A DNA stretch of 64,000 bases from the NCBI GenBank assembly GCA_017395685.1, contig JAFQOD010000073.1, positions 5,341 to 69,340 of the forward strand. Direction: 5' to 3'. Positions 29,052 to 44,413 of the stretch are shown here, piece after piece. The stretch's first letter is position 1. The number at the start of each line of letters is the position of its first letter. The position numbers and the translations under genes were made by a program. The notes beneath the pieces are model-generated. The model was not told the DNA's origin, searched no databases, and saw only the letters and a list, made by a program, of their open reading frames with translations. This DNA comes from Clostridia bacterium (GTDB lineage: Bacteria > Bacillota > Clostridia > Christensenellales > Aristaeellaceae).

Positions 29052-29186
29052 CAAACCAGAAAACACATGGATATAGACAATTGTTATGATGAAAGCCTTT
29101 CTTTCCTTAAAAAGCTTTTGAATAACAAAGGAATTATTTCATTTCATCCGTCGCCTTGATCGAGGCAGCTGAAAAGGATGTGGGAT

Positions 29187-30188
29187 ATGAATTACAGCAT
29201 TTCCGATGTGGCGCGACGTGCAGGGGTTTCCACCGCCACGGTGTCCCGGGTGATGAATAATAAAACCAACGGCGTCAGCAGCAGCACCCGGGAGCGGGTA
29301 CTGGCGATCATGGAGGAAATGAATTACCGTCCCAGCCAGCTGGCCAGAAGCATTGCGCTGAATCATTCCAATATTATCGGCGTGATCATTCCGGATGTAT
29401 CCAATCTGTTTTATCCCCAGATGCTGCGGGGAATCGATGATTATCTGAACACCAGGGGCTATTCCATGATGCTGTTCAATTCCGATTCCGATCCGGAGAG
29501 GGAAAAGAAACAGCTGCTTTCCATGGTGGATAACCGGGTGGACGGGGTGATTCTCTGCTCCGGCGTCAGCAATGAAGCCTTTCTGAAGGAATACCGCACC
29601 TACGGCATGCCCCTGGCCCTGATCGGCCGTACCTTTGACAGCGCCTATGCCGATTGCAGCATTATCGGCGATAATGAGCAGGGCATGTATGATTCTGCCA
29701 GCCTGATGCTCAGCCACGGGCATAAGCGCATCCTGTATCTGGATGGCACGGCGGGGGCGGCGGGCCCTATTTACCGGCTGCGTGGATATCGCCACGCATT
29801 GCAGGATGGGGGCGTAACCCCGGATGAAGGGCTGATCCTGCGGGGGGAATTTTCCATTCAGTTTGGCTACGATATGGTGCTGAGCCTGCTGGATGAGGGC
29901 AAGGAATTTACGGCTATCGTATCGGGCAGCGATCTGGTGGCCATCGGGGCCATCAAGGCCCTGCGCAGCCGGGGCATCCGGGTGCCGGAGGATATTGAGG
30001 TGATGGGCTTTGATAATATCGAGCTTTCTGAGATTTTCGAGCCCAAACTATCCACTGTTTCCAAACCCCATTACGAAATTGCATCCCAGGCGGCAAAAAT
30101 GCTGATTTCAACCATTGAAAATGAGGAATTGCCCATCCGCCGCATGACGGTCGCATCCACGCTGATTCTGCGGGATACCACCCGCTGA
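29187..30188 (+). CDS. LacI-family transcriptional regulator
   Basis: HTH MNYSISDVARRAGVSTATVSRVMN followed by a periplasmic-binding-like sugar-binding domain. Start 29187 is preferred over 29178 on RBS spacing. Confidence 0.85.
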   Translation: MNYSISDVARRAGVSTATVSRVMNNKTNGVSSSTRERVLAIMEEMNYRPSQLARSIALNHSNIIGVIIPDVSNLFYPQMLRGIDDYLNTRGYSMMLFNSDSDPEREKKQLLSMVDNRVDGVILCSGVSNEAFLKEYRTYGMPLALIGRTFDSAYADCSIIGDNEQGMYDSASLMLSHGHKRILYLDGTAGAAGPIYRLRGYRHALQDGGVTPDEGLILRGEFSIQFGYDMVLSLLDEGKEFTAIVSGSDLVAIGAIKALRSRGIRVPEDIEVMGFDNIELSEIFEPKLSTVSKPHYEIASQAAKMLISTIENEELPIRRMTVASTLILRDTTR

Positions 30189-30203: not shown

Positions 30204-31139
30204 ATGGAGCCGGTGATTGGTACTGTGAATACCCGGAAACCCAAATCAAAATCCCTCCTCAGACGGGTGTGGGATTATCGCGTCATTTATTTGATGCTGC
30301 TGCCTACGGTGGCCTATTTCATTCTGTTCAAGTGCAGGGCGGTAGCCGGAATGACGCTGGCATTCTATGATTACAAGCCCCGCGGCTCCAATGTGTGGGT
30401 GGGCCTGAAATACTTCCAGCAGCTTTTTTCTTCCCCCACCTTTGGAACGATCATTCTCAATACCATCAAGATTAGCCTGCTGCGCATGATCCTCAACTGG
30501 ATTTTCCCTGTGATGTTTGCCATCATGCAGCATCAGGTGCGCAAGGGCCCCTTCCGCAAGAGCGTGCAGGTAATTTCTTACCTGCCCCACTTCCTCAGCT
30601 GGATTGTTATCTTCGGTATCTGGCGGGGCGCACTGGAATACGGCGGGCTGCTCAACAATATCTATGATCTGTTCGGCGTGGAATACAAGAATCTTCTGCT
30701 GCGCAGCGATACCATTGTGGGTGTAATCGGCCTGAGCTCCCTGTGGCGGGGCATCGGCTGGGATTCCATCATCTATCTGGCCGCCATTCTGGCCATTGAT
30801 ACCACCCAGTTTGACGCCGCTACTGTGGACGGCGCATCCAGGCTGCAGGTGATCCGTCATATCATCCTGCCCTCTCTGGTGCCCACCATGGCTACCATCC
30901 TCATTCTCAACTGCGGCTCCATTCTGGATGCGGGCGTGGATCAGATCCTGGCCTTCCAGAATTCCGCTGTGCAGAATTACATCGAAGTACTGGATACCTA
31001 TGTATATCGCGTCGGCGTGGTGCAGGGCAACTATTCCTTCTCCACGGCGGCCGGCCTGTTCAAGAGTGTTGTGGGCCTGATCTTTGTTACCGCTGCCCGC
31101 TGGGGATCCGGCAAGCTGGATAGCGGCAGCGCCGTTTGA
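30204..31139 (+). CDS. sugar ABC transporter permease (LplB/YtcP-like)
   Basis: BPD_transp_1 with about 6 TM helices, LplB-like. Alternative GTG start at 30213 has better spacing to the AAGGAG RBS. Confidence 0.8.
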   Translation: MEPVIGTVNTRKPKSKSLLRRVWDYRVIYLMLLPTVAYFILFKCRAVAGMTLAFYDYKPRGSNVWVGLKYFQQLFSSPTFGTIILNTIKISLLRMILNWIFPVMFAIMQHQVRKGPFRKSVQVISYLPHFLSWIVIFGIWRGALEYGGLLNNIYDLFGVEYKNLLLRSDTIVGVIGLSSLWRGIGWDSIIYLAAILAIDTTQFDAATVDGASRLQVIRHIILPSLVPTMATILILNCGSILDAGVDQILAFQNSAVQNYIEVLDTYVYRVGVVQGNYSFSTAAGLFKSVVGLIFVTAARWGSGKLDSGSAV

Positions 31140-31154
31140 TAGGAGGGAAGAAGT

Positions 31155-32075
31155 ATGGAAAAGAATGCTGTATCCAAACGTATTCCCCGCAGGAGCAGGC
31201 TGAACAGGCTTAGCTTCGGCATGATAATGGTTCATGTGTTCATGGTGTTTCTCTCGCTGGTGATTATGGTGCCCATCCTGAATCTGGTGGCCAAATCCTT
31301 CAGCTCGCCCCAGTCCGTGGCCCATATGAGCGGCTTTGCCATCTGGCCCAAGGAATTTTCCTTCGTGCATTATCAGGTGGTGCTTTCCTCCTCCAGTATC
31401 TGGACGGCGCTGAAAAACTCCCTGATCATTACCGTCGGCGGCACCGGGCTGAGCGTGCTGCTCACCTGCGCTTCCGCCTATGCCCTCACCCGCCCCGGTT
31501 TGCCGGGTAAAAAGCTGCTGATGTTCTTCTTCATTGCCATGATGGTGCTTTCCGCCCCCATCGTGCAGTGGTACATGGTCATGAAGGATTACAGGCTGCT
31601 CAATAACCGGTGGAGCATGATTCTCTACGGCTGCGTGGGCGTTTACAACATGATTCTGCTGATGCGCTTCTTTGAAGATACCCCGCCCTCCATTCTGGAG
31701 GCCGCCCGTGTGGACGGCGCCGGGGACTGGACGCTGCTGTTCCGGATTTTCCTGCCCCTGAACAAGGTGCCCATCATCACCATCATGCTGTTCTATGTGG
31801 TGCCCAAGTGGAATGAATATTTCGCTTCCGGCGTATTCCTTACAGAGCAGAATATGCGGGTGCTGCAGGTCTATCTGAGAGAATTCGTGGTCAACAACAG
31901 CACGGCGGAAATGGGCAATGACAACCTTTCCCAGTATGCCATGTTCCGCGATCTGAATTTGACCGCCCTGCAGAATGCCACCATTTTCATCTCCATCGTG
32001 CCCCTTCTGTGCCTGTATCCCACCATCCTCAAATACTTCACTTCCGGCGTGCTGGCCGGCGGCGTGAAGGAATAA
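31155..32075 (+). CDS. carbohydrate ABC transporter permease (LplC/YteP-like)
   Basis: RBS GGAGGGA; 6 TM helices; EAA-like loop EAARVDGAGDWTLLFRIFLP. Confidence 0.85.
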   Translation: MEKNAVSKRIPRRSRLNRLSFGMIMVHVFMVFLSLVIMVPILNLVAKSFSSPQSVAHMSGFAIWPKEFSFVHYQVVLSSSSIWTALKNSLIITVGGTGLSVLLTCASAYALTRPGLPGKKLLMFFFIAMMVLSAPIVQWYMVMKDYRLLNNRWSMILYGCVGVYNMILLMRFFEDTPPSILEAARVDGAGDWTLLFRIFLPLNKVPIITIMLFYVVPKWNEYFASGVFLTEQNMRVLQVYLREFVVNNSTAEMGNDNLSQYAMFRDLNLTALQNATIFISIVPLLCLYPTILKYFTSGVLAGGVKE

Positions 32076-32196
32076 TTCCATTCATGTTCAGTCCCGCGTG
32101 ACGGCGGGGATCAGGGTATTTTCCGCGTGCCCTGCCTCTCGCTGCACAGGATGCGGTTTCATTCAGCGGAAGAATAATTGAACAGGAGGTTACCCC

Positions 32197-33654
32197 ATGA
32201 AGAAACTTTTGGCTATCCTGATGGTTCTCACTCTGGCGCTGGGCCTTGTTGGCACCGCTGCCGCCGATGAAGTGGTCACCCTGAAGATCCTGGCCCGTAC
32301 CAGCGATCTGACCGCCAATCAGCCCGGTATCGATGCGCTGAATGAAAAGCTGGAAAAGGCTATCGGCGTGCGTCTGGAATGGCACAACCAGGCTTCCTCC
32401 GGCTATCCGGATTTCGTTAACAACATGCTGCAGACCTGGGAACCCGAAGATGTGTATGATCTGATTTATGTGCAGAGCACTTCCATCAATCCCATGTATC
32501 TGGGCAAGGATCTGGAAACCCTGGTGGATATGACCGAACTGGTTGAAAATTCCACCTATCTGAAGCCCGCCATGGAAAAGGATGCCATCTTTGCTGCGCA
32601 GTTCGCTGCCTGCCCCTACCTGCTGTGGCCCTCTGATGTGAATCAGGTGCTGCAGTTCCGTACCGACGCTCTGGAAGCCTGCCCCTCCTGGGAAGCTTTC
32701 CAGCAGAAGCCTGATCAGGCTGCCTACACCCAGCTGCTCAAGGAACTGAAGGCCCAGGGTTATGAAGCTGCTTTCACCACCCAGGCTTCCATCGATTACC
32801 TGGTCAAGACCGGCGTTGATTCCGGCTTCGGCATCACCAACACCTGGCTGAAGAATGAAGACGGCTCCTACACCTACTGCCGCGTCAGCGAAAACTTCCT
32901 CAAGGAACTGCAGTGGTATCGTCAGCTGTATGTGGATGGCGTTCTGTCCAAGAACTGGGCCACTGACAACTGGGAATCCATGGAAAACTCCCTGTACACC
33001 GGCGTTGTGGCTGGTATCGCCATGAAGGGCGGCGCCTACACCGTGTACTATGATAACAACACTGTCACCAACTACGGCGAAGGCGCTCACCTGACCATCC
33101 TGCCTCCCATGGTTGGCGAAAACGGCGAACAGTGCTATGCCATCACCTCCCAGAAGTTTGACCGCGGCTGGTGCATTTCCTCCTCTTCCGCCAATGTGGA
33201 AAAGGCTTTCGAAGTGCTGGATTGGATGATGAGCGATGAAGGCCGTATGTTCGATCTGTTCGGCGTAGAAGGCACCGACTACACCGTCAATGAAGACGGC
33301 ACCCTGAACCTGCTGTGCTCCTCCGACGCCACCAGCATCTACCGCATCTTTGACGCTGACGTGTTCGGCGATATCGATGTGCGCAAGGTTGCCACCACCG
33401 GCGCCAAGTATTGGCCCGATGCTTCCTTCGCTTCTGCTGAAATGGTTGCCAAGTACGGCAAGGCCGATAACGATTTCGTGATCCCCGATGAACACGTAAT
33501 CAACTGGACTGCCTGCGAATCCCTGTGGAAGGAATTTGCCACCCAGTACATCCTGGGCGAAAAGACCGATGCCGATTGGGCCACCTTCGTGGAAACCTGG
33601 CATAACTACGGCGGCGAAGCTGTGGAAGAATACGCTGCTGAAGTGATCGAATAA
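32197..33654 (+). CDS. extracellular solute-binding protein (LplA-like sugar ABC substrate-binding protein)
   Basis: Signal peptide MKKLLAILMVLTLALGLVGTAAA; 485 aa SBP_bac_1-like. Confidence 0.85.
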   Translation: MKKLLAILMVLTLALGLVGTAAADEVVTLKILARTSDLTANQPGIDALNEKLEKAIGVRLEWHNQASSGYPDFVNNMLQTWEPEDVYDLIYVQSTSINPMYLGKDLETLVDMTELVENSTYLKPAMEKDAIFAAQFAACPYLLWPSDVNQVLQFRTDALEACPSWEAFQQKPDQAAYTQLLKELKAQGYEAAFTTQASIDYLVKTGVDSGFGITNTWLKNEDGSYTYCRVSENFLKELQWYRQLYVDGVLSKNWATDNWESMENSLYTGVVAGIAMKGGAYTVYYDNNTVTNYGEGAHLTILPPMVGENGEQCYAITSQKFDRGWCISSSSANVEKAFEVLDWMMSDEGRMFDLFGVEGTDYTVNEDGTLNLLCSSDATSIYRIFDADVFGDIDVRKVATTGAKYWPDASFASAEMVAKYGKADNDFVIPDEHVINWTACESLWKEFATQYILGEKTDADWATFVETWHNYGGEAVEEYAAEVIE

Positions 33655-33788: not shown

Positions 33789-34565
33789 ATGAAGCCAACC
33801 GATTTTTCATCCGTCCGGCTGATTGCCATGGATCTGGATGGAACGCTTCTGAACAAGGAAAAGACCATTTCTCCCCGTACCCTTCAGGCATTGGAAGAAT
33901 GCCGGAGGAGGGGGATCAAACTGGCCTTTGTGACGGGCCGCAGCCGGAAGGCGGCCCGGCAGTATGAGGAAATGCTCCGGCCGGAGGGCGCTGTGTTTTC
34001 CTATGGTGCTCAAATCATGCTCCAGGGCGAAACCATCGCCAGGCGGCATATGTCTCCCCAGGTGGCCGGCAGGGTGCTGGCGGGGGCAAAGGCGGCCGCC
34101 AAGATACGCTATCAATTAAAAGACGGCCCTTATTTTTCTTCTGTGCCCATGGAGGGATGCCTTCCCATGGAGGAGGATGCCCCTCTATTGCAGCCCGTTG
34201 AGCATATTGCCCTGTGGGATTTTCCGGAAAATGCGGCCCGTACCCTGGCAAAAAAATGCGGCTGCGCTCTCACCCAGGCGGTGGGGGACCGGTGGTGCAA
34301 TTTTTCCGCCAGGGGAACTGGAAAGGGCCCTGGTATGGGGCGATTGATGAATGCCCTGGGCCTTGAAAAGGGCCAGGCGCTGGCATTCGGGGATGAAAGC
34401 TGCGATGTGGAATTTTTCCGCATCTGCGGCATTGGCGTCGCCATGGAAAACGGTGATGCTTTCACCCGTGCTCATGCCGATTATCAGACCGAGAATAATG
34501 ATTGCGACGGTATAGCGATATTCCTGGAAAAATATCTGCTTTCCATGCCATCCAATATGTTATAA
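33789..34565 (+). CDS. HAD-IIB Cof-type sugar phosphatase
   Basis: Motif I IAMDLDGTLL, motif II VTGR, and C-terminal GDESCDVEFFRICGIGVAMENG (motifs III/IV). Confidence 0.8.
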   Translation: MKPTDFSSVRLIAMDLDGTLLNKEKTISPRTLQALEECRRRGIKLAFVTGRSRKAARQYEEMLRPEGAVFSYGAQIMLQGETIARRHMSPQVAGRVLAGAKAAAKIRYQLKDGPYFSSVPMEGCLPMEEDAPLLQPVEHIALWDFPENAARTLAKKCGCALTQAVGDRWCNFSARGTGKGPGMGRLMNALGLEKGQALAFGDESCDVEFFRICGIGVAMENGDAFTRAHADYQTENNDCDGIAIFLEKYLLSMPSNML

Positions 34566-34603: not shown

Positions 34604-35593
34604 ATGATTACCCGAGAAGATCTGCGCGCCAATCCTGAACTGCTTGCCGATAAGACCCGGGGCGCCCTGTGCGGCCTTGCCATCGGCGATTCCTTCGGCG
34701 ATGCTGCCCGCAAGCCTGATTATCAGCGGGATTACGGCATTACCACCGATTTCCACCGGGGCGACGCCTGGTCCACCGATGATACGGAATTTGCCCTGCT
34801 GGTAGCGGAAACCATCATTCAGGCCGGCGGCGATTTCACCTCTGAAGATGTGGAAAAAATGTGGAAAAAGCACGTTGTGGTGCAGGATGAACTGCGCCGT
34901 GGCGGCGTGAGCGAAATGGATGCGGCTGCCAATCTGCGCAAGGGCCTGCATGCCCCTATTTCCGGCATGTTCGGCACCCATAACCACAGTGACGGCGCTG
35001 CCATGCGCTGCGGCCCCATCGGCATTTATTGCGCCGGTGATGTGGAAAAGGCCAAGGAACTGTGCCGCATTGACGCTGAAATCAGCCATTGCCGGGACGG
35101 CGTCTGGGGCGCCCAGATGGTAGCGGTTGCCGTGGCCCTGGCCATGGTGGACGCCCCCTGGGAAGTGATCTTTGAGGAAGTGCTCAAGTGCGCCCCCGAA
35201 GAGTCCTGGCTGTATGACCGGATGAAGGCCGCCTATAAAGTGGTGGAAGAAAACAATTATGACGTGGCCGATACCTGGATGAAGCTGCATGATCTTTTGT
35301 TCTGCTCCTATCGTGCCGCCACCCCCGAGGCCATGCCCGAAGCCTTCGGCTGCCTGATGCTCAAGCATGATACCTTCAAATCCGGCGTGCTGCTGGCCTC
35401 CAATTTCGGCCGGGATGCAGATACCATCGGCGCGGTGGTGGGCTGCATTCTGGGCGCCCGTTACGGCGCCAAGGCCATTCCGCCCTACTGGCTGGAGCAT
35501 ACCCGCTATCCCTCCGGCACCTGCCTGCAGTTCACCAAGGGTGTGGATCTGTTCGAAAAGGCGGAGCGGCTGGCTGAATTGATCGCCAAATAA
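34604..35593 (+). CDS. ADP-ribosylglycohydrolase (ARH) family protein
   Basis: ARH fold motifs: GALCGLAIGDSFGDA, the STDDTEF Asp pair, and C-terminal GRDADTIGAVVGCILGARYG (second metal site). Confidence 0.8.
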   Translation: MITREDLRANPELLADKTRGALCGLAIGDSFGDAARKPDYQRDYGITTDFHRGDAWSTDDTEFALLVAETIIQAGGDFTSEDVEKMWKKHVVVQDELRRGGVSEMDAAANLRKGLHAPISGMFGTHNHSDGAAMRCGPIGIYCAGDVEKAKELCRIDAEISHCRDGVWGAQMVAVAVALAMVDAPWEVIFEEVLKCAPEESWLYDRMKAAYKVVEENNYDVADTWMKLHDLLFCSYRAATPEAMPEAFGCLMLKHDTFKSGVLLASNFGRDADTIGAVVGCILGARYGAKAIPPYWLEHTRYPSGTCLQFTKGVDLFEKAERLAELIAK

Positions 35594-36495
35594 TGAAATT
35601 AACCTTTCTGGGCACGGCAGCAGCGGAAATGTATCCAGCTCCCTTCTGCCAGTGCCCTCATTGCACTCAGGCCCGGAAAGAGGGCGGCAAAAACATCCGC
35701 GCCAACAGCGCCGCCCTGATCGATGATGATATTCTGCTGGATATGAATGTGACCAGTCACTATGTGGCGGCCCGGCTGGGGATTTCCCTGGCCGGGGTGC
35801 GCCATCTGCTGGTCACCCATCCCCACACCGATCATTTTGAGCCCGATCGCCTGCGCTGGCGCAGAACCACCGCCAAAGGCGTGCCCCCCTTTGATCCGGC
35901 CGCCGGCCTCTGGTCCGCCCGATTTACGGAAACACCGGAAATGACCATTCACGGCAATGCCTATGTCCGGGAGCGGCTGGATGGGGTGATCCTTCCTGAG
36001 GTAAAGGCCACGGCGGAATACGATTTCCATTTCGAACTGATCGAAGAAGGAAAATGGCAGGATTGCGGAGATTTTGCATTCCTGCCCCTGCGCTCCAATC
36101 ACGGAAAGCAGGAAGGCATGGCCCATACCTACCTGATCCGCAGGGGAGGGAAAACCCTCTTTTACTGCACGGACTGCGGCGGCTTTGATCCGGATCAGCT
36201 GGATATCCTGGCCCGGCAGAAGATCGATCTGGTGGTGATGGAGGGCACCTTCGGCCTGGGCGCATATGCCAATGAGGATGCGCCCCTGCCCACCGGAAAA
36301 GGGCATATGAATCTGAAAAAGAATGAGGTGCTGCGGGCCTTCCTGCTGGATCATGGCTGCATCACCCCGGATACCCCCTGCATTCTTACCCATCTGTGTC
36401 CCCATTATACGCCGCCCCATGCGCAATTTGAAAAGATTGCCCGTCAATCAGGGTTCGGGGTTGCCTATGACGGCCTGGAAATCATGATTGAATAA
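35593..36495 (+). CDS. MBL-fold metallo-hydrolase, PhnP-like (CxCxxC structural zinc motif)
   Basis: N-terminal LTFLGTAAAEMYPAPFCQCPHC (CxCxxC as in PhnP cyclic-phosphate phosphodiesterases); HxHxDH as VTHPHTDHF. Confidence 0.65.
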   Translation: MKLTFLGTAAAEMYPAPFCQCPHCTQARKEGGKNIRANSAALIDDDILLDMNVTSHYVAARLGISLAGVRHLLVTHPHTDHFEPDRLRWRRTTAKGVPPFDPAAGLWSARFTETPEMTIHGNAYVRERLDGVILPEVKATAEYDFHFELIEEGKWQDCGDFAFLPLRSNHGKQEGMAHTYLIRRGGKTLFYCTDCGGFDPDQLDILARQKIDLVVMEGTFGLGAYANEDAPLPTGKGHMNLKKNEVLRAFLLDHGCITPDTPCILTHLCPHYTPPHAQFEKIARQSGFGVAYDGLEIMIE

Positions 36496-36515: not shown

Positions 36516-38651
36516 ATGTCGAAGATACCATCCGGCTATATGGAACGGGTTTATGCCGGCTGGCTGGGAAAAATCATCGGCGTTCGGCTGGGCGCAGCCA
36601 TTGAGGCCTGGGATTTTGAATGCATCCGGCAAAGCTTCGGAGAATTGAATGATTATCCCGCATGGTATAAGCATTTTGCCGCCGATGATGATACCACCGG
36701 CCCATTGTATCTCTTCCGTGCCCTGGAGGAAAAAAAGGGGGATACCCTGACCTCCCAGGATGTGGCGGACGCATTTCTCAATTACTGTGCAGACGGCCAC
36801 GGCTTTATCTGGTGGGGCGGCTACGGCACATCCACTATGCATAATGCCTATGTCAATCTGCGCTCCGGTATGAAGCCCCCGCAGAGCGGCGCCAGGGAAA
36901 CCAATGGCCCGGTGCTGTCGGAAATGATTGCCGGGCAGATCTTTGTGGATCCCTGGGGCCTGGTCGCCCCGGCCAATCCCTCCCTTGCGGCGGAGATGGC
37001 AGAAAAGGCGGCCCGCGTCACCCATGACGGCAATTCTGTTCAGGGGGCCCGGTTTGTGGCGGCGGCCATTTCAGCGGCATTTGCGGCTGAAAATATCCGG
37101 GAGATCATCGAAACGGCCCTTGCCCTGATCGATCCTTCCTGTGATTATGCCCGGGTGGCCCGGTTCGTGATGGATTATTATGATCAACATCCGGATTGCA
37201 CCTGGCAGGATTGTTTCCTTCAGGTGAAGGAGCATTACGGATATGATAAGTATCCCGGGGCCACGCCGGTGGTGCCCAATGCCGGGGTGATGGTGCTTTC
37301 CATGCTCTATGGCGGCGGAGATTTCGAAAAAACGCTGCTTATCTGCGCCAACTGCGGCTGGGATACCGATTGCAATGCAGGCAATATCGGCACCATCATG
37401 GGCGTGCTCTGCGGCCTGGATCAGATGGATTATCAGAAATGGCGCAAGCCCGTCAATGATCTTCTGATCCGTTCCGGCGTGCTGGGCGATATGAACAATA
37501 CCGATATTCCCTACGGCGCCTGCTATATTGCAAGGCTGGCCTACCAGCTGGCAGGGGAGGAAATCCCCGAAAAATGGAAGGATATTCTGCTGAACCGCAG
37601 CCATGAATGCCATTTCGAATTCCCGGGCAGCACCCATGCCCTGGAAGTGCGCACCGATGGCCGGGATAATACCTTCCAGATGATCAATACCGATGAAGAT
37701 GCCTATTCAGGCGACCGATGCATGAAATTTTTCGGCACCCGTCTTCTGGGCGGTCAGGAACTGTATCTGCATCGCAGAACCTATTACTGGAAAGATGATT
37801 TTTCCGATTCCCGGTATGATCCCTGCTTTGCCCCCATTTTCTATCCGGGGCAAACGGTGGAAGCGGCGGTGAAGCTGCCCCCCTACAGCGATCCCTTCTA
37901 TGCCTGGGCTTATGCCCGGGATGGGCGCACGGGAAAGATCTATGCCGGGGAAAAAACGCTGATGACCCGGGAAAAATGGCAGGTGCTGAAGGTGACGGTG
38001 CCCCCCGGGGACGGCGTCATCATAGATGAAGCCGGGATCTGCATGCAGGTTCCCTTTGAAAAGACGGGCCGGCGGGGCGGATTCCAGGTGCAATTGTTCA
38101 TTGACGATCTCAGGTTCACAGGGGCAGCGGATTATACCCTGGATCTGACCCGGGAAACCAAAGAGGTGTGGAGCGCACGCCACCAGGATATCACCCAGGT
38201 GACAAGGCTGAAGCACTGCGGCGAAATCGTGCCCCATGGGATGCTGATGGCCTGCCAGGAGGAGGCCGAATGGTATACCGGCTGCCATAGCTGGCGGGAT
38301 CTGGATGCATCCTATACCCTGATTCCCCAGGAAGGAAGGGCGCATTTTGCGCTGTTCAGGGTGCAGGGCGCCATGCGCAGCTATGGGGCTGGCTTCCTGG
38401 ACGGGCAGTTTGTCATCCGCAAGAATGATTATGGATGGCGCACCCTGGCCGCCGTTCCCTGCGATCCTCCCCTGGGGGATACGGTGACCATATCCGTCAG
38501 CGTCCGGGGCAATCAGATTGAAGCCCGGTGCGGCGGCACTATCCTGCGCATTACGGATGAGGATCATCCCTTAATGGAGGGCGCCGTGGGCGCAGGGGTG
38601 GAAAAGGGCGCTGCAGTATTGGAGCGCATCCGCATCAGATGCGTGAACTGA
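36516..38651 (+). CDS. ADP-ribosylglycohydrolase-family domain fused to about 380-aa uncharacterized C-terminal domain
   Basis: N-terminal about 330 aa ARH domain (GWLGKIIGVRLGAAIE, FAADDDTTGP, CGWDTDCNAGNIGTIMGV); the C-terminal half has no recognisable family. Confidence 0.75.
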   Translation: MSKIPSGYMERVYAGWLGKIIGVRLGAAIEAWDFECIRQSFGELNDYPAWYKHFAADDDTTGPLYLFRALEEKKGDTLTSQDVADAFLNYCADGHGFIWWGGYGTSTMHNAYVNLRSGMKPPQSGARETNGPVLSEMIAGQIFVDPWGLVAPANPSLAAEMAEKAARVTHDGNSVQGARFVAAAISAAFAAENIREIIETALALIDPSCDYARVARFVMDYYDQHPDCTWQDCFLQVKEHYGYDKYPGATPVVPNAGVMVLSMLYGGGDFEKTLLICANCGWDTDCNAGNIGTIMGVLCGLDQMDYQKWRKPVNDLLIRSGVLGDMNNTDIPYGACYIARLAYQLAGEEIPEKWKDILLNRSHECHFEFPGSTHALEVRTDGRDNTFQMINTDEDAYSGDRCMKFFGTRLLGGQELYLHRRTYYWKDDFSDSRYDPCFAPIFYPGQTVEAAVKLPPYSDPFYAWAYARDGRTGKIYAGEKTLMTREKWQVLKVTVPPGDGVIIDEAGICMQVPFEKTGRRGGFQVQLFIDDLRFTGAADYTLDLTRETKEVWSARHQDITQVTRLKHCGEIVPHGMLMACQEEAEWYTGCHSWRDLDASYTLIPQEGRAHFALFRVQGAMRSYGAGFLDGQFVIRKNDYGWRTLAAVPCDPPLGDTVTISVSVRGNQIEARCGGTILRITDEDHPLMEGAVGAGVEKGAAVLERIRIRCVN

Positions 38652-38715
38652 ACGGGAATTCCCTGCCGCCTGCGGGCGGCCAGGCCATAAACAGAGATAA
38701 AATACATAGGTTGAG

Positions 38716-40857
38716 GTGAATAAAATGTCTAAGATTCCGTCGAATTATATGGAACAGGTATATGCCGGCTGGCTGGGCAAGATTGTGGGTATCCGCCTGG
38801 GCGCTGCGGTGGAAGGCTGGGAATACCAGCGGATCAAGGAATTGTTCGGGGAACTGACCTATTATCCCGCCACCTACAAGCGTTTTGCCGCCGATGATGA
38901 CAGCAATGGCCCCCTCTATTTCCTGCGCGGCCTGGAAGATAGGCGGGGCGAAGTGATGACCCCTCAGGATGTGGGGGAAGCGCTGCTCAATTATGCCGCT
39001 TATGAGCATGGCTTTTTCTGGTGGGGCGGCTACGGCGTCTCCACCGAGCATACCTCCTATCTGAATCTGCGCCGGGGCATCAAGGCCCCCGACAGCGGAT
39101 CCATCGCCACCAACGGCGCCGCCATTGCCGAGCAGATCGGCGGCCAGATTTTCATCGATACCTGGGGCCTGGTTGCCCCCGGCAATCCTGATCTGGCGGC
39201 GGATCTGGCGGCCAAGGCTGCCTCCGTTACCCACGGCGGCAACGGCGTATACGGCGGCGTATTCGTGGCCACCTGCATTGCGGCGGCCTTTGTGGAAAAG
39301 GATATCCGCAAGGTAATGGAAATTGCCCTTTCCCATATTCCCGGCGATTGTGAATATACCCGTGTAGCCCGGGCGGTATTGAATTTCCATGATACCAAGC
39401 CCGAGGCCAGCTGGCGGGATTGCTTCCAGTTCCTGTATGATAATTTCGGCTATGATCGTTATCCCGGGGTGTGCCATATCATTCCCAATGCGGGCGTGAT
39501 GGTGCTTGCCATGGCATACGGCAACGGTGATTTTGAAGATACCCTGAATATCTGCAATATGTGCGGCTGGGATACCGACTGCAATGTGGGTAATGTGGGC
39601 ACCATCATGGGCGTACTGTGCGGCATTGAGGCCATCGATTATCAGAAGTGGCTGCGGCCCATCAACGATCTGTGCATCCGCTCCGGCGTGCTGGGGGATA
39701 TGAATATTGTGGATGTTCCCTACGGTGCCTGCTATATCGCCCGGCTTGCCTACCAGATGGCAGGGGAAGAAATCCCCGGCAAATGGAAGGATATTCTGGA
39801 AAACCGCATCCACGACTGTCATTTCGAATTTGAAAAGAGCACCCATGCCCTGGAAGTGCGCACCGTGGGCCGGGATAATACCTGGCATTTCGTCAATACC
39901 GATGAATCCGCCTATACGGGCGACCGGTGCCTGAAATTCTTTGCCACCCGTCTGGAGCCCGGCCAGGAATTGTATCTGCACCGCAGGAATTATTACTGGA
40001 TGAAGGATTTTTCCGATTCCCGGTATGATCCTTGCTTCTCTCCCATCTTCTATCCCGGCCAGACCGTGGAAGTGGCTGTGGGCGTGCCGGAATACGGCGA
40101 TGATATTGAAGTATGGGCCTATGCCCGGGATACCCGGATGGGCAAGGATTTCACCGGAGAAAAGGTGATCATCAAGCGGGGTGAATGGCAGAAGCTGTCC
40201 CTTACCGTGCCCGGCTATGAAGGCGGCCTGGTGGATGAATGCGGCGTATGCCTGGTGGCTCCCACCGAAAAGCGGCGGAAGGGCTTCCAGCTGGTTGCCT
40301 ATATCGATGATCTGCATTATTCCGGTCAGCCCGATTACACTGTGGAGCTGAAGAACGAAGTAAAGGAATACTGGACTGAGCGGCATCAGGATATCACCCA
40401 GATGACCCGTATGCGGGGCATGGCCGAAATGGCAGAGCGAGGCATGCGGATTGCCTGCGAGGAAGAGGGCGAATGGTATACCGGCTGCCACAGCTGGAAG
40501 GATTATGATGCCTCCTTCACTTTTACCCCCGAATCCGGCAATGAGCATCTGGCCCTTTTCCGGGTGCAGGGCGCCATCCGCAGCTATGCTGCCGGCTTTG
40601 TTGACGGAAAATTTGTCATCCAGAAGAATGATAACGGCTATACCACCCTGGCCGAAACCGATTGCCCCATCCGGATGGGTGAAACGCTGACGGTATCGGT
40701 GAGTGTCCGGGGCAACAAGATCGAAGCCCGCTGCGCCGGCATCATTCTGAATGTGGAGGATACCTCTGCCCGGCCCTATCTGGAGGGCGAAGTGGGCGTG
40801 GCTGTGCGCAATCAATCCACCGCTGTTGTTGAGCGGATCCGTGTCAAAGGGGTGTAA
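38716..40857 (+). CDS. ADP-ribosylglycohydrolase-family fusion protein (tandem paralog of 36516..38651)
   Basis: Collinear with the preceding gene at roughly 55-60% aa identity; the same ARH metal-site motifs (FAADDDSNGP, CGWDTDCNVGNVG) and homologous C-terminal domain. Confidence 0.75.
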   Translation: MNKMSKIPSNYMEQVYAGWLGKIVGIRLGAAVEGWEYQRIKELFGELTYYPATYKRFAADDDSNGPLYFLRGLEDRRGEVMTPQDVGEALLNYAAYEHGFFWWGGYGVSTEHTSYLNLRRGIKAPDSGSIATNGAAIAEQIGGQIFIDTWGLVAPGNPDLAADLAAKAASVTHGGNGVYGGVFVATCIAAAFVEKDIRKVMEIALSHIPGDCEYTRVARAVLNFHDTKPEASWRDCFQFLYDNFGYDRYPGVCHIIPNAGVMVLAMAYGNGDFEDTLNICNMCGWDTDCNVGNVGTIMGVLCGIEAIDYQKWLRPINDLCIRSGVLGDMNIVDVPYGACYIARLAYQMAGEEIPGKWKDILENRIHDCHFEFEKSTHALEVRTVGRDNTWHFVNTDESAYTGDRCLKFFATRLEPGQELYLHRRNYYWMKDFSDSRYDPCFSPIFYPGQTVEVAVGVPEYGDDIEVWAYARDTRMGKDFTGEKVIIKRGEWQKLSLTVPGYEGGLVDECGVCLVAPTEKRRKGFQLVAYIDDLHYSGQPDYTVELKNEVKEYWTERHQDITQMTRMRGMAEMAERGMRIACEEEGEWYTGCHSWKDYDASFTFTPESGNEHLALFRVQGAIRSYAAGFVDGKFVIQKNDNGYTTLAETDCPIRMGETLTVSVSVRGNKIEARCAGIILNVEDTSARPYLEGEVGVAVRNQSTAVVERIRVKGV

Positions 40858-40863
40858 GCTGAT

Positions 40864-42222
40864 ATGAAGACTACCATTCTCTCTCCCTGTGGTATTCTGG
40901 GCTATGGTTTTCCCGAAAGTTCCTTCCGGGCGGCCATTGCCCAGCGGCCGGACGCCATCGTGGTGGATGCCGGCAGCACCGACGCAGGCCCTCATAAGCT
41001 GGGCGCAGGAACGGCCATTGTCAGCCGGATGGCCTGCAAAAAGGATCTGAAGCTGCTGATGGAAGGGGCCAAGGCCCTTTCCATCCCCCTGGTGATCGGC
41101 TCTGCCGGCGGCTCCGGCGCCCGGACCCATGTGAACTGGACGCTGAGCATCATTGAAGAATTGGCCCGGGAAATGGATTGGCAGGCCTCTCTGGCGGTGA
41201 TCTGGGCGGATATTCCCAAGGATCATATCCTGGCCCAGCAGGAAAAGGGCGGGGTAACCAAAATGAGCCCCAATGTGCCCGATATCACCAAAGAAAGCCT
41301 GGACGCCACCAACGGCGTAGTGGCCCAGATGGGCGCAGAGCCCATCATCAAGGCCCTGGAGGCCGGCGCCCAGATCATCGTCTGCGGCCGTGCCTACGAT
41401 CCTGCGCCCTTTGCCGCCGTTGCCATGCACAGGGGCCATGACGCCGCCCTGGGCTTCCATCTGGGCAAGATCCTGGAATGCGGCACCCTCTGCGCCGAGC
41501 CCGGAACAGCCAAGGACTGCATGCTGGGCATGCTGGATGATACCGGCTTTGAAGTATGGCCGGCTGATCCCAAGCGCAAGTGCACCCCCGTTACCGTGGC
41601 CGCCCACACCTTCTATGAAAAGGATCATCCCTACATTCTGAAGGGCCCCGGCATGGTGCTCAATCTGGAAGGCTGCATCTTTACCGACTGCGGCGAAGGC
41701 CGTGTGCGGGTGGAAGGCAGCAGGCTGGAATGGATCCCCTATACCATCAAGCTGGAGGGGGCCAGGCTCAGGGCATACCGCACCTTCGTATTGGCCGGGA
41801 TCCGGGATCCCCTGCTTATCAGCCGTCTGGATGAAGTGGAGGCGGAAGTGCGCCGCCAGGTGAAGGAATATTATTCGGAAATCCCGGAAGATCAGTATCA
41901 GATCAATTTCTATCATTACGGTATTGACGGCGTAATGGGCGAATTGGAGCCCGATCGCACGCTGCCCCATGAAGTGGGATTGATGTTTGAGGTGCTGGCG
42001 GGCACCCAGGAAATGGCCAACGCCATCTGCGCCACCGTCCGTTCCAGCTATCTGCATTACGGCTATCCCGGGCGCAAATCCACGGCGGGCAATCTGGCCT
42101 TCCCCTTCGCCCCCAGCGATGTGCAGTTTGGGGCGGTATATATGTTCTCCGTATATCATCTGATGCAGGTGGCAGATCCCTGCGCTCTGTTCCCCATTGA
42201 ATACAGGGAGGTGGGCGTATGA
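40864..42222 (+). CDS. DUF1446 (acyclic terpene utilization AtuA-like) family protein
   Basis: 452 aa; N-terminal ILSPCGILGYGFP and overall architecture resemble AtuA-like proteins. Called from recollection of the family, not from a search. Confidence 0.6.
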   Translation: MKTTILSPCGILGYGFPESSFRAAIAQRPDAIVVDAGSTDAGPHKLGAGTAIVSRMACKKDLKLLMEGAKALSIPLVIGSAGGSGARTHVNWTLSIIEELAREMDWQASLAVIWADIPKDHILAQQEKGGVTKMSPNVPDITKESLDATNGVVAQMGAEPIIKALEAGAQIIVCGRAYDPAPFAAVAMHRGHDAALGFHLGKILECGTLCAEPGTAKDCMLGMLDDTGFEVWPADPKRKCTPVTVAAHTFYEKDHPYILKGPGMVLNLEGCIFTDCGEGRVRVEGSRLEWIPYTIKLEGARLRAYRTFVLAGIRDPLLISRLDEVEAEVRRQVKEYYSEIPEDQYQINFYHYGIDGVMGELEPDRTLPHEVGLMFEVLAGTQEMANAICATVRSSYLHYGYPGRKSTAGNLAFPFAPSDVQFGAVYMFSVYHLMQVADPCALFPIEYREVGV

Positions 42223-42530
42223 CCATTTATGAAGCAGCCCATGTGGTGCGTTCCAAGAACAGCGGCCCCTTTGCCGTGACGCTGGATATCCTGTTTGACC
42301 GAAGCGAGGAATATTTCCGCCTGAAAAATTCCGGGATGATCACCCCGGAGTTTGTTGCCGGCCTGTACCGGATTTCCCCGGAAGATATTACCGATTTTGC
42401 CTGGTTTGATGCGGGGCTTGGGGTCAAGATCACGTATCTGAGAAAGGTTGCCTCCGGTACGGTGGGCGATCGGGATGTATATGGCGCTCAGCAGCATGCG
42501 CCCCTGCTCATGCTGGAAATGCCTGAATAA
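42219..42530 (+). CDS. DUF4387-like small protein, translationally coupled to the DUF1446 gene
   Basis: 103 aa; its start overlaps the upstream stop (ATGA); RBS GAGGTGG. DUF1446/DUF4387 commonly occur as pairs. Confidence 0.55.
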   Translation: MTIYEAAHVVRSKNSGPFAVTLDILFDRSEEYFRLKNSGMITPEFVAGLYRISPEDITDFAWFDAGLGVKITYLRKVASGTVGDRDVYGAQQHAPLLMLEMPE

Positions 42531-43531: not shown

Positions 43532-44413
43532 ATGAAAATGCTTGTCTTTGGATCACTGAATATTGATCATACCTATCGGATGCCCCATCTGGTGCGGGCA
43601 GGGGAAACCCTGGCCTCAGCCAGCTATCAGCGCAATGCGGGGGGCAAGGGCCTCAATCAGACCATTGCCCTGGCCCGGGCAGGGCAGCCGGTTTCCATGG
43701 CCGGGGCCATCGGCGAGGATGGATTATTCCTCAAGGCCTATCTGGATTCCTTTGGGGTGGATACCAGCCTGATCCGCATCTGCGAGGAGGCCACCGGCCA
43801 TGCCATCATCCAGCTGGATGCGGAGGGGCAGAATGCCATCATGCTGTACGGCGGCGCCAATCAGCAGATGACGAAGGAAAGCGTATCCGATGCGCTCAGC
43901 GGATTCGGCCCGGGGGATTATCTGCTTTTGCAGAATGAAATCAACTGCCTGGATGAAATCGTCCGCCTGGCGAAGGAGAAGGGAATGAAGGTCATCCTCA
44001 ATCCCAGCCCCATGAGCGACAGCCTTCCTGCGCTGCTGCCTCAGGTGGATTGGCTGATTCTCAATGAAGTGGAAGGGGCGGATCTGACCGGCACATCCGA
44101 TCCGGATGCCATTGTGGATGCCCTGCTGGCCCGTTATCCCGCCTGCCGCATCGTGCTGACCCTGGGCACCCAGGGATCCATGTATGCAGACGGCGAAAAC
44201 CGGTATTTCCAGCCGGTGATCAAGGTGGAAGCGGTGGATACCACGGCGGCCGGCGATACCTTTACGGGCTTCTTTTTCCAGAGCGTGCTCAGCGGCAGGG
44301 ATATTCCCTATGCCCTCCGTCTGGCGGCCAATGCATCCGCCATTGCGGTAACGCGCCCTGGCGCCGGTGGCTCCATTCCTTCTCTGGATGAAGTGCTTGA
44401 AAAAATGAAATAA
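43532..44413 (+). CDS. rbsK: ribokinase
   Basis: PfkB fold with NxxG and the ribokinase signature AVDTTAAGDTFTG near the C-terminus; 293 aa. Confidence 0.85.
   Translation: MKMLVFGSLNIDHTYRMPHLVRAGETLASASYQRNAGGKGLNQTIALARAGQPVSMAGAIGEDGLFLKAYLDSFGVDTSLIRICEEATGHAIIQLDAEGQNAIMLYGGANQQMTKESVSDALSGFGPGDYLLLQNEINCLDEIVRLAKEKGMKVILNPSPMSDSLPALLPQVDWLILNEVEGADLTGTSDPDAIVDALLARYPACRIVLTLGTQGSMYADGENRYFQPVIKVEAVDTTAAGDTFTGFFFQSVLSGRDIPYALRLAANASAIAVTRPGAGGSIPSLDEVLEKMK

Follow-up and report, generated by a model that had tools for sequence, protein, structure and literature searches.

Members of the ADP-ribosylglycohydrolase (ARH) family, such as MJ1187 (1T5J), DraG, human ARH1 and ARH3, and Tri1, share a fold and the motifs PxE, (T/D)DD and DTD. 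To our knowledge, all biochemically known ARHs act on ADP-ribose conjugates or derivatives, and their product is not a substrate of ribokinase. In the yegTUV-type clusters of E. coli, the ARH-family protein YegU is encoded together with the PfkB kinase YegV and the nucleoside-type transporter YegT. The CBM66 of the Bacillus subtilis levanase SacC (4AZZ, 4B1L, 4B1M) binds terminal fructofuranose, and modules of this type sit on secreted GH32, GH43 and GH9 (also PL) CAZymes. Known CBM66 ligands range from terminal fructose to the side chains of xanthan (PMC11002231), and an enzyme can need the module to act not only on polymers but also on small substrates (PMC12678895). Finally, the ribose utilisation systems (RUS) of Bacteroidetes bring together one or more ribokinases, a regulator (often of the LacI type), a transporter and variable hydrolases that can include ADP-ribosylglycohydrolases (Glowacki et al., 10.1101/574913).

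The window analysed here (64,000 nt of contig JAFQOD010000073.1 from a Clostridia bacterium) carries two tandem genes, each of which joins an ARH domain to two sugar-binding-type beta-sandwich modules, D1 and D2 (Table 1). The genes stand in a RUS-like set that comprises a LacI regulator, a CUT1 ABC importer, a ribokinase-like PfkB and a hydrolase. Ribokinase-type kinase, regulator, transporter and hydrolase share one locus as in RUS, and the link of these genes to ribose is a predicted one. In contrast to the Bacteroidetes systems, the Firmicute and spirochaete loci of this family use CUT1 ABC importers rather than SusC/D and their hydrolase is the ARH-D1-D2 fusion. As in yegTUV, the fusion loci place an ARH-family protein beside a PfkB kinase and a transporter, but YegU is a single-domain ARH and the yegTUV transporter is of the MFS type. 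The standalone ARH of the window consists of the ARH domain only, as the original prediction had it; it is 24% identical to the ARH domain of the fusion and such a gene co-occurs with the fusion in 28 of 81 loci. In Type-A loci, the fusion is followed by the AtuA-like and DUF4387 pair. Further away, 10 kb downstream, the window holds a pair of TIR-domain (NADase-type) genes.

Table 1. Features of the fusion gene cluster in window coordinates.
Feature	Coordinates	Strand	Details
LacI-family regulator	29178..30188	+	Cluster head; Pfam LacI and Peripla_BP; position conserved in Type-A loci
CUT1-type ABC sugar importer	30204..33654	+	Permeases 30204..31139 and 31155..32075; solute-binding protein 32197..33654 (SBP_bac_1)
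Cof-type HAD phosphatase	33789..34565	+	PF08282, E 3.8e-35; in 7 loci
Standalone canonical-type ARH	34604..35593	+	329 aa; PF03747, E 8.2e-50; weak DraG/Tri1-like matches
MBL-fold hydrolase, PhnP-like (cyclic phosphodiesterase-like)	35593..36495	+	PF12706; partial match to TIGR03307 (PhnP), E 1.9e-13; in 8 loci
Copy 1, ARH-D1-D2 fusion	36516..38651	+	ORF, 711 aa; fast-diverging paralogue
Copy 1, ARH (ADP-ribosylglycohydrolase-fold) domain	36516..37535	+	aa 1-340; PF03747, E 2.4e-54
Copy 1, D1, CBM22/CBM4/CBM44-like beta-jelly roll	37593..38150	+	aa ~360-545; motifs CHFEFPGSTHA and DFSDSRYDPxFxPxxYPGQ
Copy 1, D2, CBM66/PF06439 (DUF1080)-type ConA-like beta-sandwich	38151..38651	+	aa ~546-711
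Copy 2, ARH-D1-D2 fusion	38725..40857	+	ORF, 710 aa from ATG; conserved orthologue
Copy 2, ARH domain	38725-39744	+	PF03747, E 1.2e-55
Copy 2, D1	39802-40353	+	
Copy 2, D2	40354-40854	+	
AtuA-like protein	40864..42222	+	PF07287; in 12 loci
DUF4387 protein	42219..42530	+	PF14330; in 8 loci
Ribokinase-like PfkB sugar kinase	43532..44413	+	TIGR02152, 238.7 bits

The two collinear reading frames had been described as divergent duplicates of about 55-60% identity by eye; they are indeed divergent tandem duplicates and this figure was slightly low. BLASTP aligns them over their full length with 440 identities in 712 positions (62%), 77% positives and 4 gaps (E = 0). Copy 1 is preceded by the ribosome-binding site GGAGG, 8 nt 5' of its ATG, and copy 2 by the arrangement GAGGTG-N6-ATG. 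The listed GTG start of copy 2 (position 38716, 713 aa) falls within its own ribosome-binding site GAGGTG and other gene callers concur on the ATG, so that position 38725 is most likely the true start. Copy 1 is not an artefact, since the exact protein was found on 19 independent metagenome contigs with identical gene order.

The ARH domain is complete and both of its Asp motifs are intact, in agreement with the original prediction. PF03747 is the sole Pfam match of the whole proteins (aa 15-303 in copy 1 and aa 18-308 in copy 2), the scores being 185.4 and 189.6 bits where the curated cut-off is 26.2, and all 51 family members inspected match it. Both copies carry FAADDD and CGWDTDCN; in the alignment with MJ1187 these fall on its metal motifs TDD and DTD, as E30 of copy 1 falls on PxE. 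The family as a whole presents the PxE, T/D-D-D and D-T-D motifs of a binuclear metal site. The corresponding residues of copy 1 are E30, D57-D58-D59 and D283-T284-D285; E30, D57-59, D283 and D285 are invariant across the 51 diverse members. These invariant residues suggest that the ARH domains are likely catalytically competent. Compared to known ARHs, the fusions nevertheless form a very remote subfamily with its own signature (WWGGYG, GQIFxD, CHIIPN): in profile comparison, the ARH domain reaches E 7e-11 with 1T5J and only ~0.5 with ARH3 and DraG, so that none of the solved homologues is close. They further differ from known ARHs in being permanently joined to two beta-sandwich modules and in lying in sugar-catabolic operons rather than in ADP-ribosylation cycles.

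These features bear on whether the fusions are classical de-ADP-ribosylases of the DraG, ARH3 or Tri1 kind, acting in regulation or immunity on ADP-ribosylated proteins, nucleic acids or small ADP-ribose esters. The strong PF03747 membership, the intact metal motifs, the ADP-ribose conjugates used by the known enzymes and the nearby TIR genes are all consistent with such a role. However, the TIR genes are not conserved beside the family, the ARH domain is distant from ARH3 and DraG, and known de-ADP-ribosylases lack anything comparable to the CBM-like modules. In addition, the operons hold a LacI/RbsR regulator, an ABC sugar importer and a ribokinase rather than ADP-ribosyltransferases, nitrogenase or toxins, and we consider this role unlikely.

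The C-terminal half had been presented as a single domain of about 380 residues that could not be assigned to any family. Searched alone, its last ~370 residues indeed gave no Pfam, NCBIfam or PDB-sequence match, even at E <= 10, but the region comprises two modules rather than one and D2 becomes recognisable as CBM66/PF06439 with a family profile. The expected abundance of beta-strand also holds: AlphaFold2 modelled the region confidently as all-beta (pLDDT 89.1, pTM 0.85). Fold comparison found CBM or lectin folds for both modules, as had been conjectured, and sugar binding by D1 and D2 is predicted from fold and homology. D1 adopts the beta-jelly-roll fold of type-B CBMs of the GBD-like class (CBM22, CBM4, CBM44). 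Type-B CBMs, including the CBM22 of Xyn10C/XynY and the mannanase GBD, show no usable sequence similarity to D1, which is marked by invariant motifs of its own (CHFEFPGSTHA; DSRYDPxFSPxxYPGQ). The D1 of neither copy matches a Pfam family at E <= 10, and a single one of the 51 family members weakly matches PF21253. D1, which was not seen outside the ARH-D1-D2 subfamily, should on sequence grounds be termed CBM-like rather than a member of a CBM family.

D2, in contrast, is by its profile a true, though divergent, relative of CBM66/PF06439. The D2 family profile matches the CBM66 structures 4B1M, 4AZZ and 4B1L over the entire module (E 4.4e-9 to 5.2e-9), and its ConA-like beta-sandwich is superimposable on BsCBM66. 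PF06439 is matched by 14 of the 51 members (E down to 5e-8), whereas D2 of both window copies stays below the Pfam threshold and is 12-14% identical to the SacC module. D2 also differs from SacC-type CBM66 in that it is carried by an intracellular ARH protein. Alternatively, D2 might be a second catalytic module, akin to the DUF1080 3-keto-glycoside lyases/hydratases or a DUF1080 glycanase, which would make the fusion bifunctional. We regard this as very unlikely. The window cluster has no Gfo/Idh/MocA-type (or LacABC-type) glycoside 3-dehydrogenase that could partner such a lyase/hydratase, and a Gfo-type gene was found in only 4 of the 81 loci.

It is rather improbable, on balance, that D1 and D2 kept the CBM fold but lost sugar binding, serving as scaffolds for structure or oligomerisation and leaving the ARH domain alone to set the substrate. 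Conservation of at least 90% is reached by just 19-23% of their columns, compared with 50% of those of the ARH domain. Among the D1 positions that are near-invariant in the broad family, aromatic residues, Pro and Gly predominate (F367, Y434, P440, G445) and could be structural. However, polar residues at least 90% conserved in the Clostridia/Treponema clade are present in D1 (H366, E368, T373, H374, D431, R433, D435) and in D2 (H556, Q561, K566, E585, R615, Q617, R621, K636, N637, D681). In the model of isolated D1, confidence is lowest for the DSRYDP loop, which is the most conserved loop of this domain, as expected if it needs a partner or ligand. The fusion is also kept across phyla.

The fusion proteins are predicted to be cytoplasmic because their N-terminus leads straight into the ARH fold. 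Neither copy presents a signal peptide or anchor, the ARH fold beginning by residue ~6, and an N-terminal extension was absent from all family members inspected. The modules are closest in fold to CBMs that belong to secreted xylanases, cellulases and levanase, which would be in line with a secreted or surface enzyme tethered to insoluble polysaccharide. Given the missing signal peptide and the location of the genes behind an ABC importer, this is extremely unlikely. The earlier proposal that the module targets the hydrolase to a glycan is unlikely as well, if taken as the classical role of a CBM. The same two observations make it more likely that the modules shape intracellular recognition of a small soluble substrate.

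The two copies have diverged unequally. Copy 2 is 72-74% identical to the single-copy genes of loci L011, L012 and L001, while copy 1 is at most 59% identical to orthologues elsewhere. By these identities, the tandem pair is a duplication within the source lineage. Copy 1 departs from the family at 41 of 245 conserved columns, 35 of them within the ARH domain; its changes include S60T and N61T beside the metal motif as well as E94G, E108M, Q137M, Y176Q, H251P and N278A. The two copies are equally well conserved in D1 and D2, with three deviations each. Copy 2 would thus keep the ancestral function, and copy 1, diverged in its ARH pocket, probably takes a related but different substrate. The suggestion of two related specificities is therefore plausible, with the difference lying mostly in the catalytic domain and not in the CBM-like modules. 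The many changes in copy 1, some adjoining the metal motif, could instead mean that this duplicate is decaying or has become non-catalytic, as a pseudo-enzyme or a binding protein. This is doubtful, since every invariant metal-motif residue is retained, D1 and D2 are not eroded, and the intact reading frame with its good ribosome-binding site is identical on all 19 contigs.

The ARH-D1-D2 architecture was found in 331 species-representative genomes (302 clusters at 50% identity), with gut anaerobes among them in the hundreds, and the conservation of the C-terminal half therefore extends well beyond the source genome. Anaerocolumna and Blautia celeris are examples of cultured carriers. The fusion appears obligate and widespread: all short database matches inspected are fragments, because every one starts inside the ARH domain, and the gene that is split in Superficieibacter still encodes D2. 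Our literature search found no characterised member of this subfamily.

We examined gene neighbourhoods across 81 loci and for 83 fusion genes; 44 loci were well-flanked. Of the 44 well-flanked loci, 32 have a PfkB/ribokinase gene no more than 5 kb away from the fusion, and for 30 of the 83 fusion genes PfkB is the immediate downstream gene. CUT1 permeases and solute-binding proteins are present in 33 and 30 of the 44, respectively, and loci with PfkB usually also hold a CUT1 ABC importer and a LacI/RbsR-type regulator. In Type-B loci (L043), which also have RpiB as an adjacent gene, the kinase is a true ribokinase with 348.6 bits, above the ribokinase equivalog cut-off of 299.65 (TIGR02152), and the regulator takes the form of an RbsR-like::ribokinase-like fusion. 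Several observations count against a link to ribose: the kinase of the window falls below this cut-off, 12 of the 44 well-flanked loci have no nearby PfkB, and some contexts deviate (GH65 and beta-PGM in L059, an Opp-type transporter in Superficieibacter). The phosphatase, PhnP-like phosphodiesterase and AtuA/DUF4387 genes of Type-A loci are likewise not explained by a simple ribose scheme, and the ADP-ribose-derived product of known ARHs would not feed a ribokinase.

The setting of ribokinase and ABC sugar import points to a ribose-releasing glycosidase rather than a protein de-ADP-ribosylase. We give about even chances to a cytoplasmic three-domain glycosidase that would free ribose from an imported ribosyl-glycoside, D1 and D2 reading the remaining substrate. 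Under this model, the LacI-controlled operon would import a soluble sugar-like compound through the CUT1 transporter and the ARH domain would cleave the glycosidic bond at C1 of its terminal ribofuranosyl unit. D1 and D2 would bind the aglycone or neighbouring sugars and thereby confer specificity, and the freed ribose would be phosphorylated by the co-encoded ribokinase-type PfkB and enter the pentose-phosphate pathway. In this, D1 and D2 may act much as the beta-sandwich does that is fixed at the C-terminus of GH32 and GH43 glycosidases, although the catalytic folds are unrelated (all-alpha ARH versus beta-propeller).

More tentatively, the ARH fold may have been recruited as a carbohydrate-catabolic, ribofuranosidase-type glycosidase with its own CBM-like modules, forming a Firmicute and spirochaete counterpart of the Bacteroidetes RUS. 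If true, this would constitute a new class of CAZyme and would extend the ARH fold past the removal of ADP-ribose from proteins and small ADP-ribose esters. It would also imply an unrecognised nutrient in the gut, rumen and termite gut, namely a ribose-containing glycoside of dietary, host or microbial origin.

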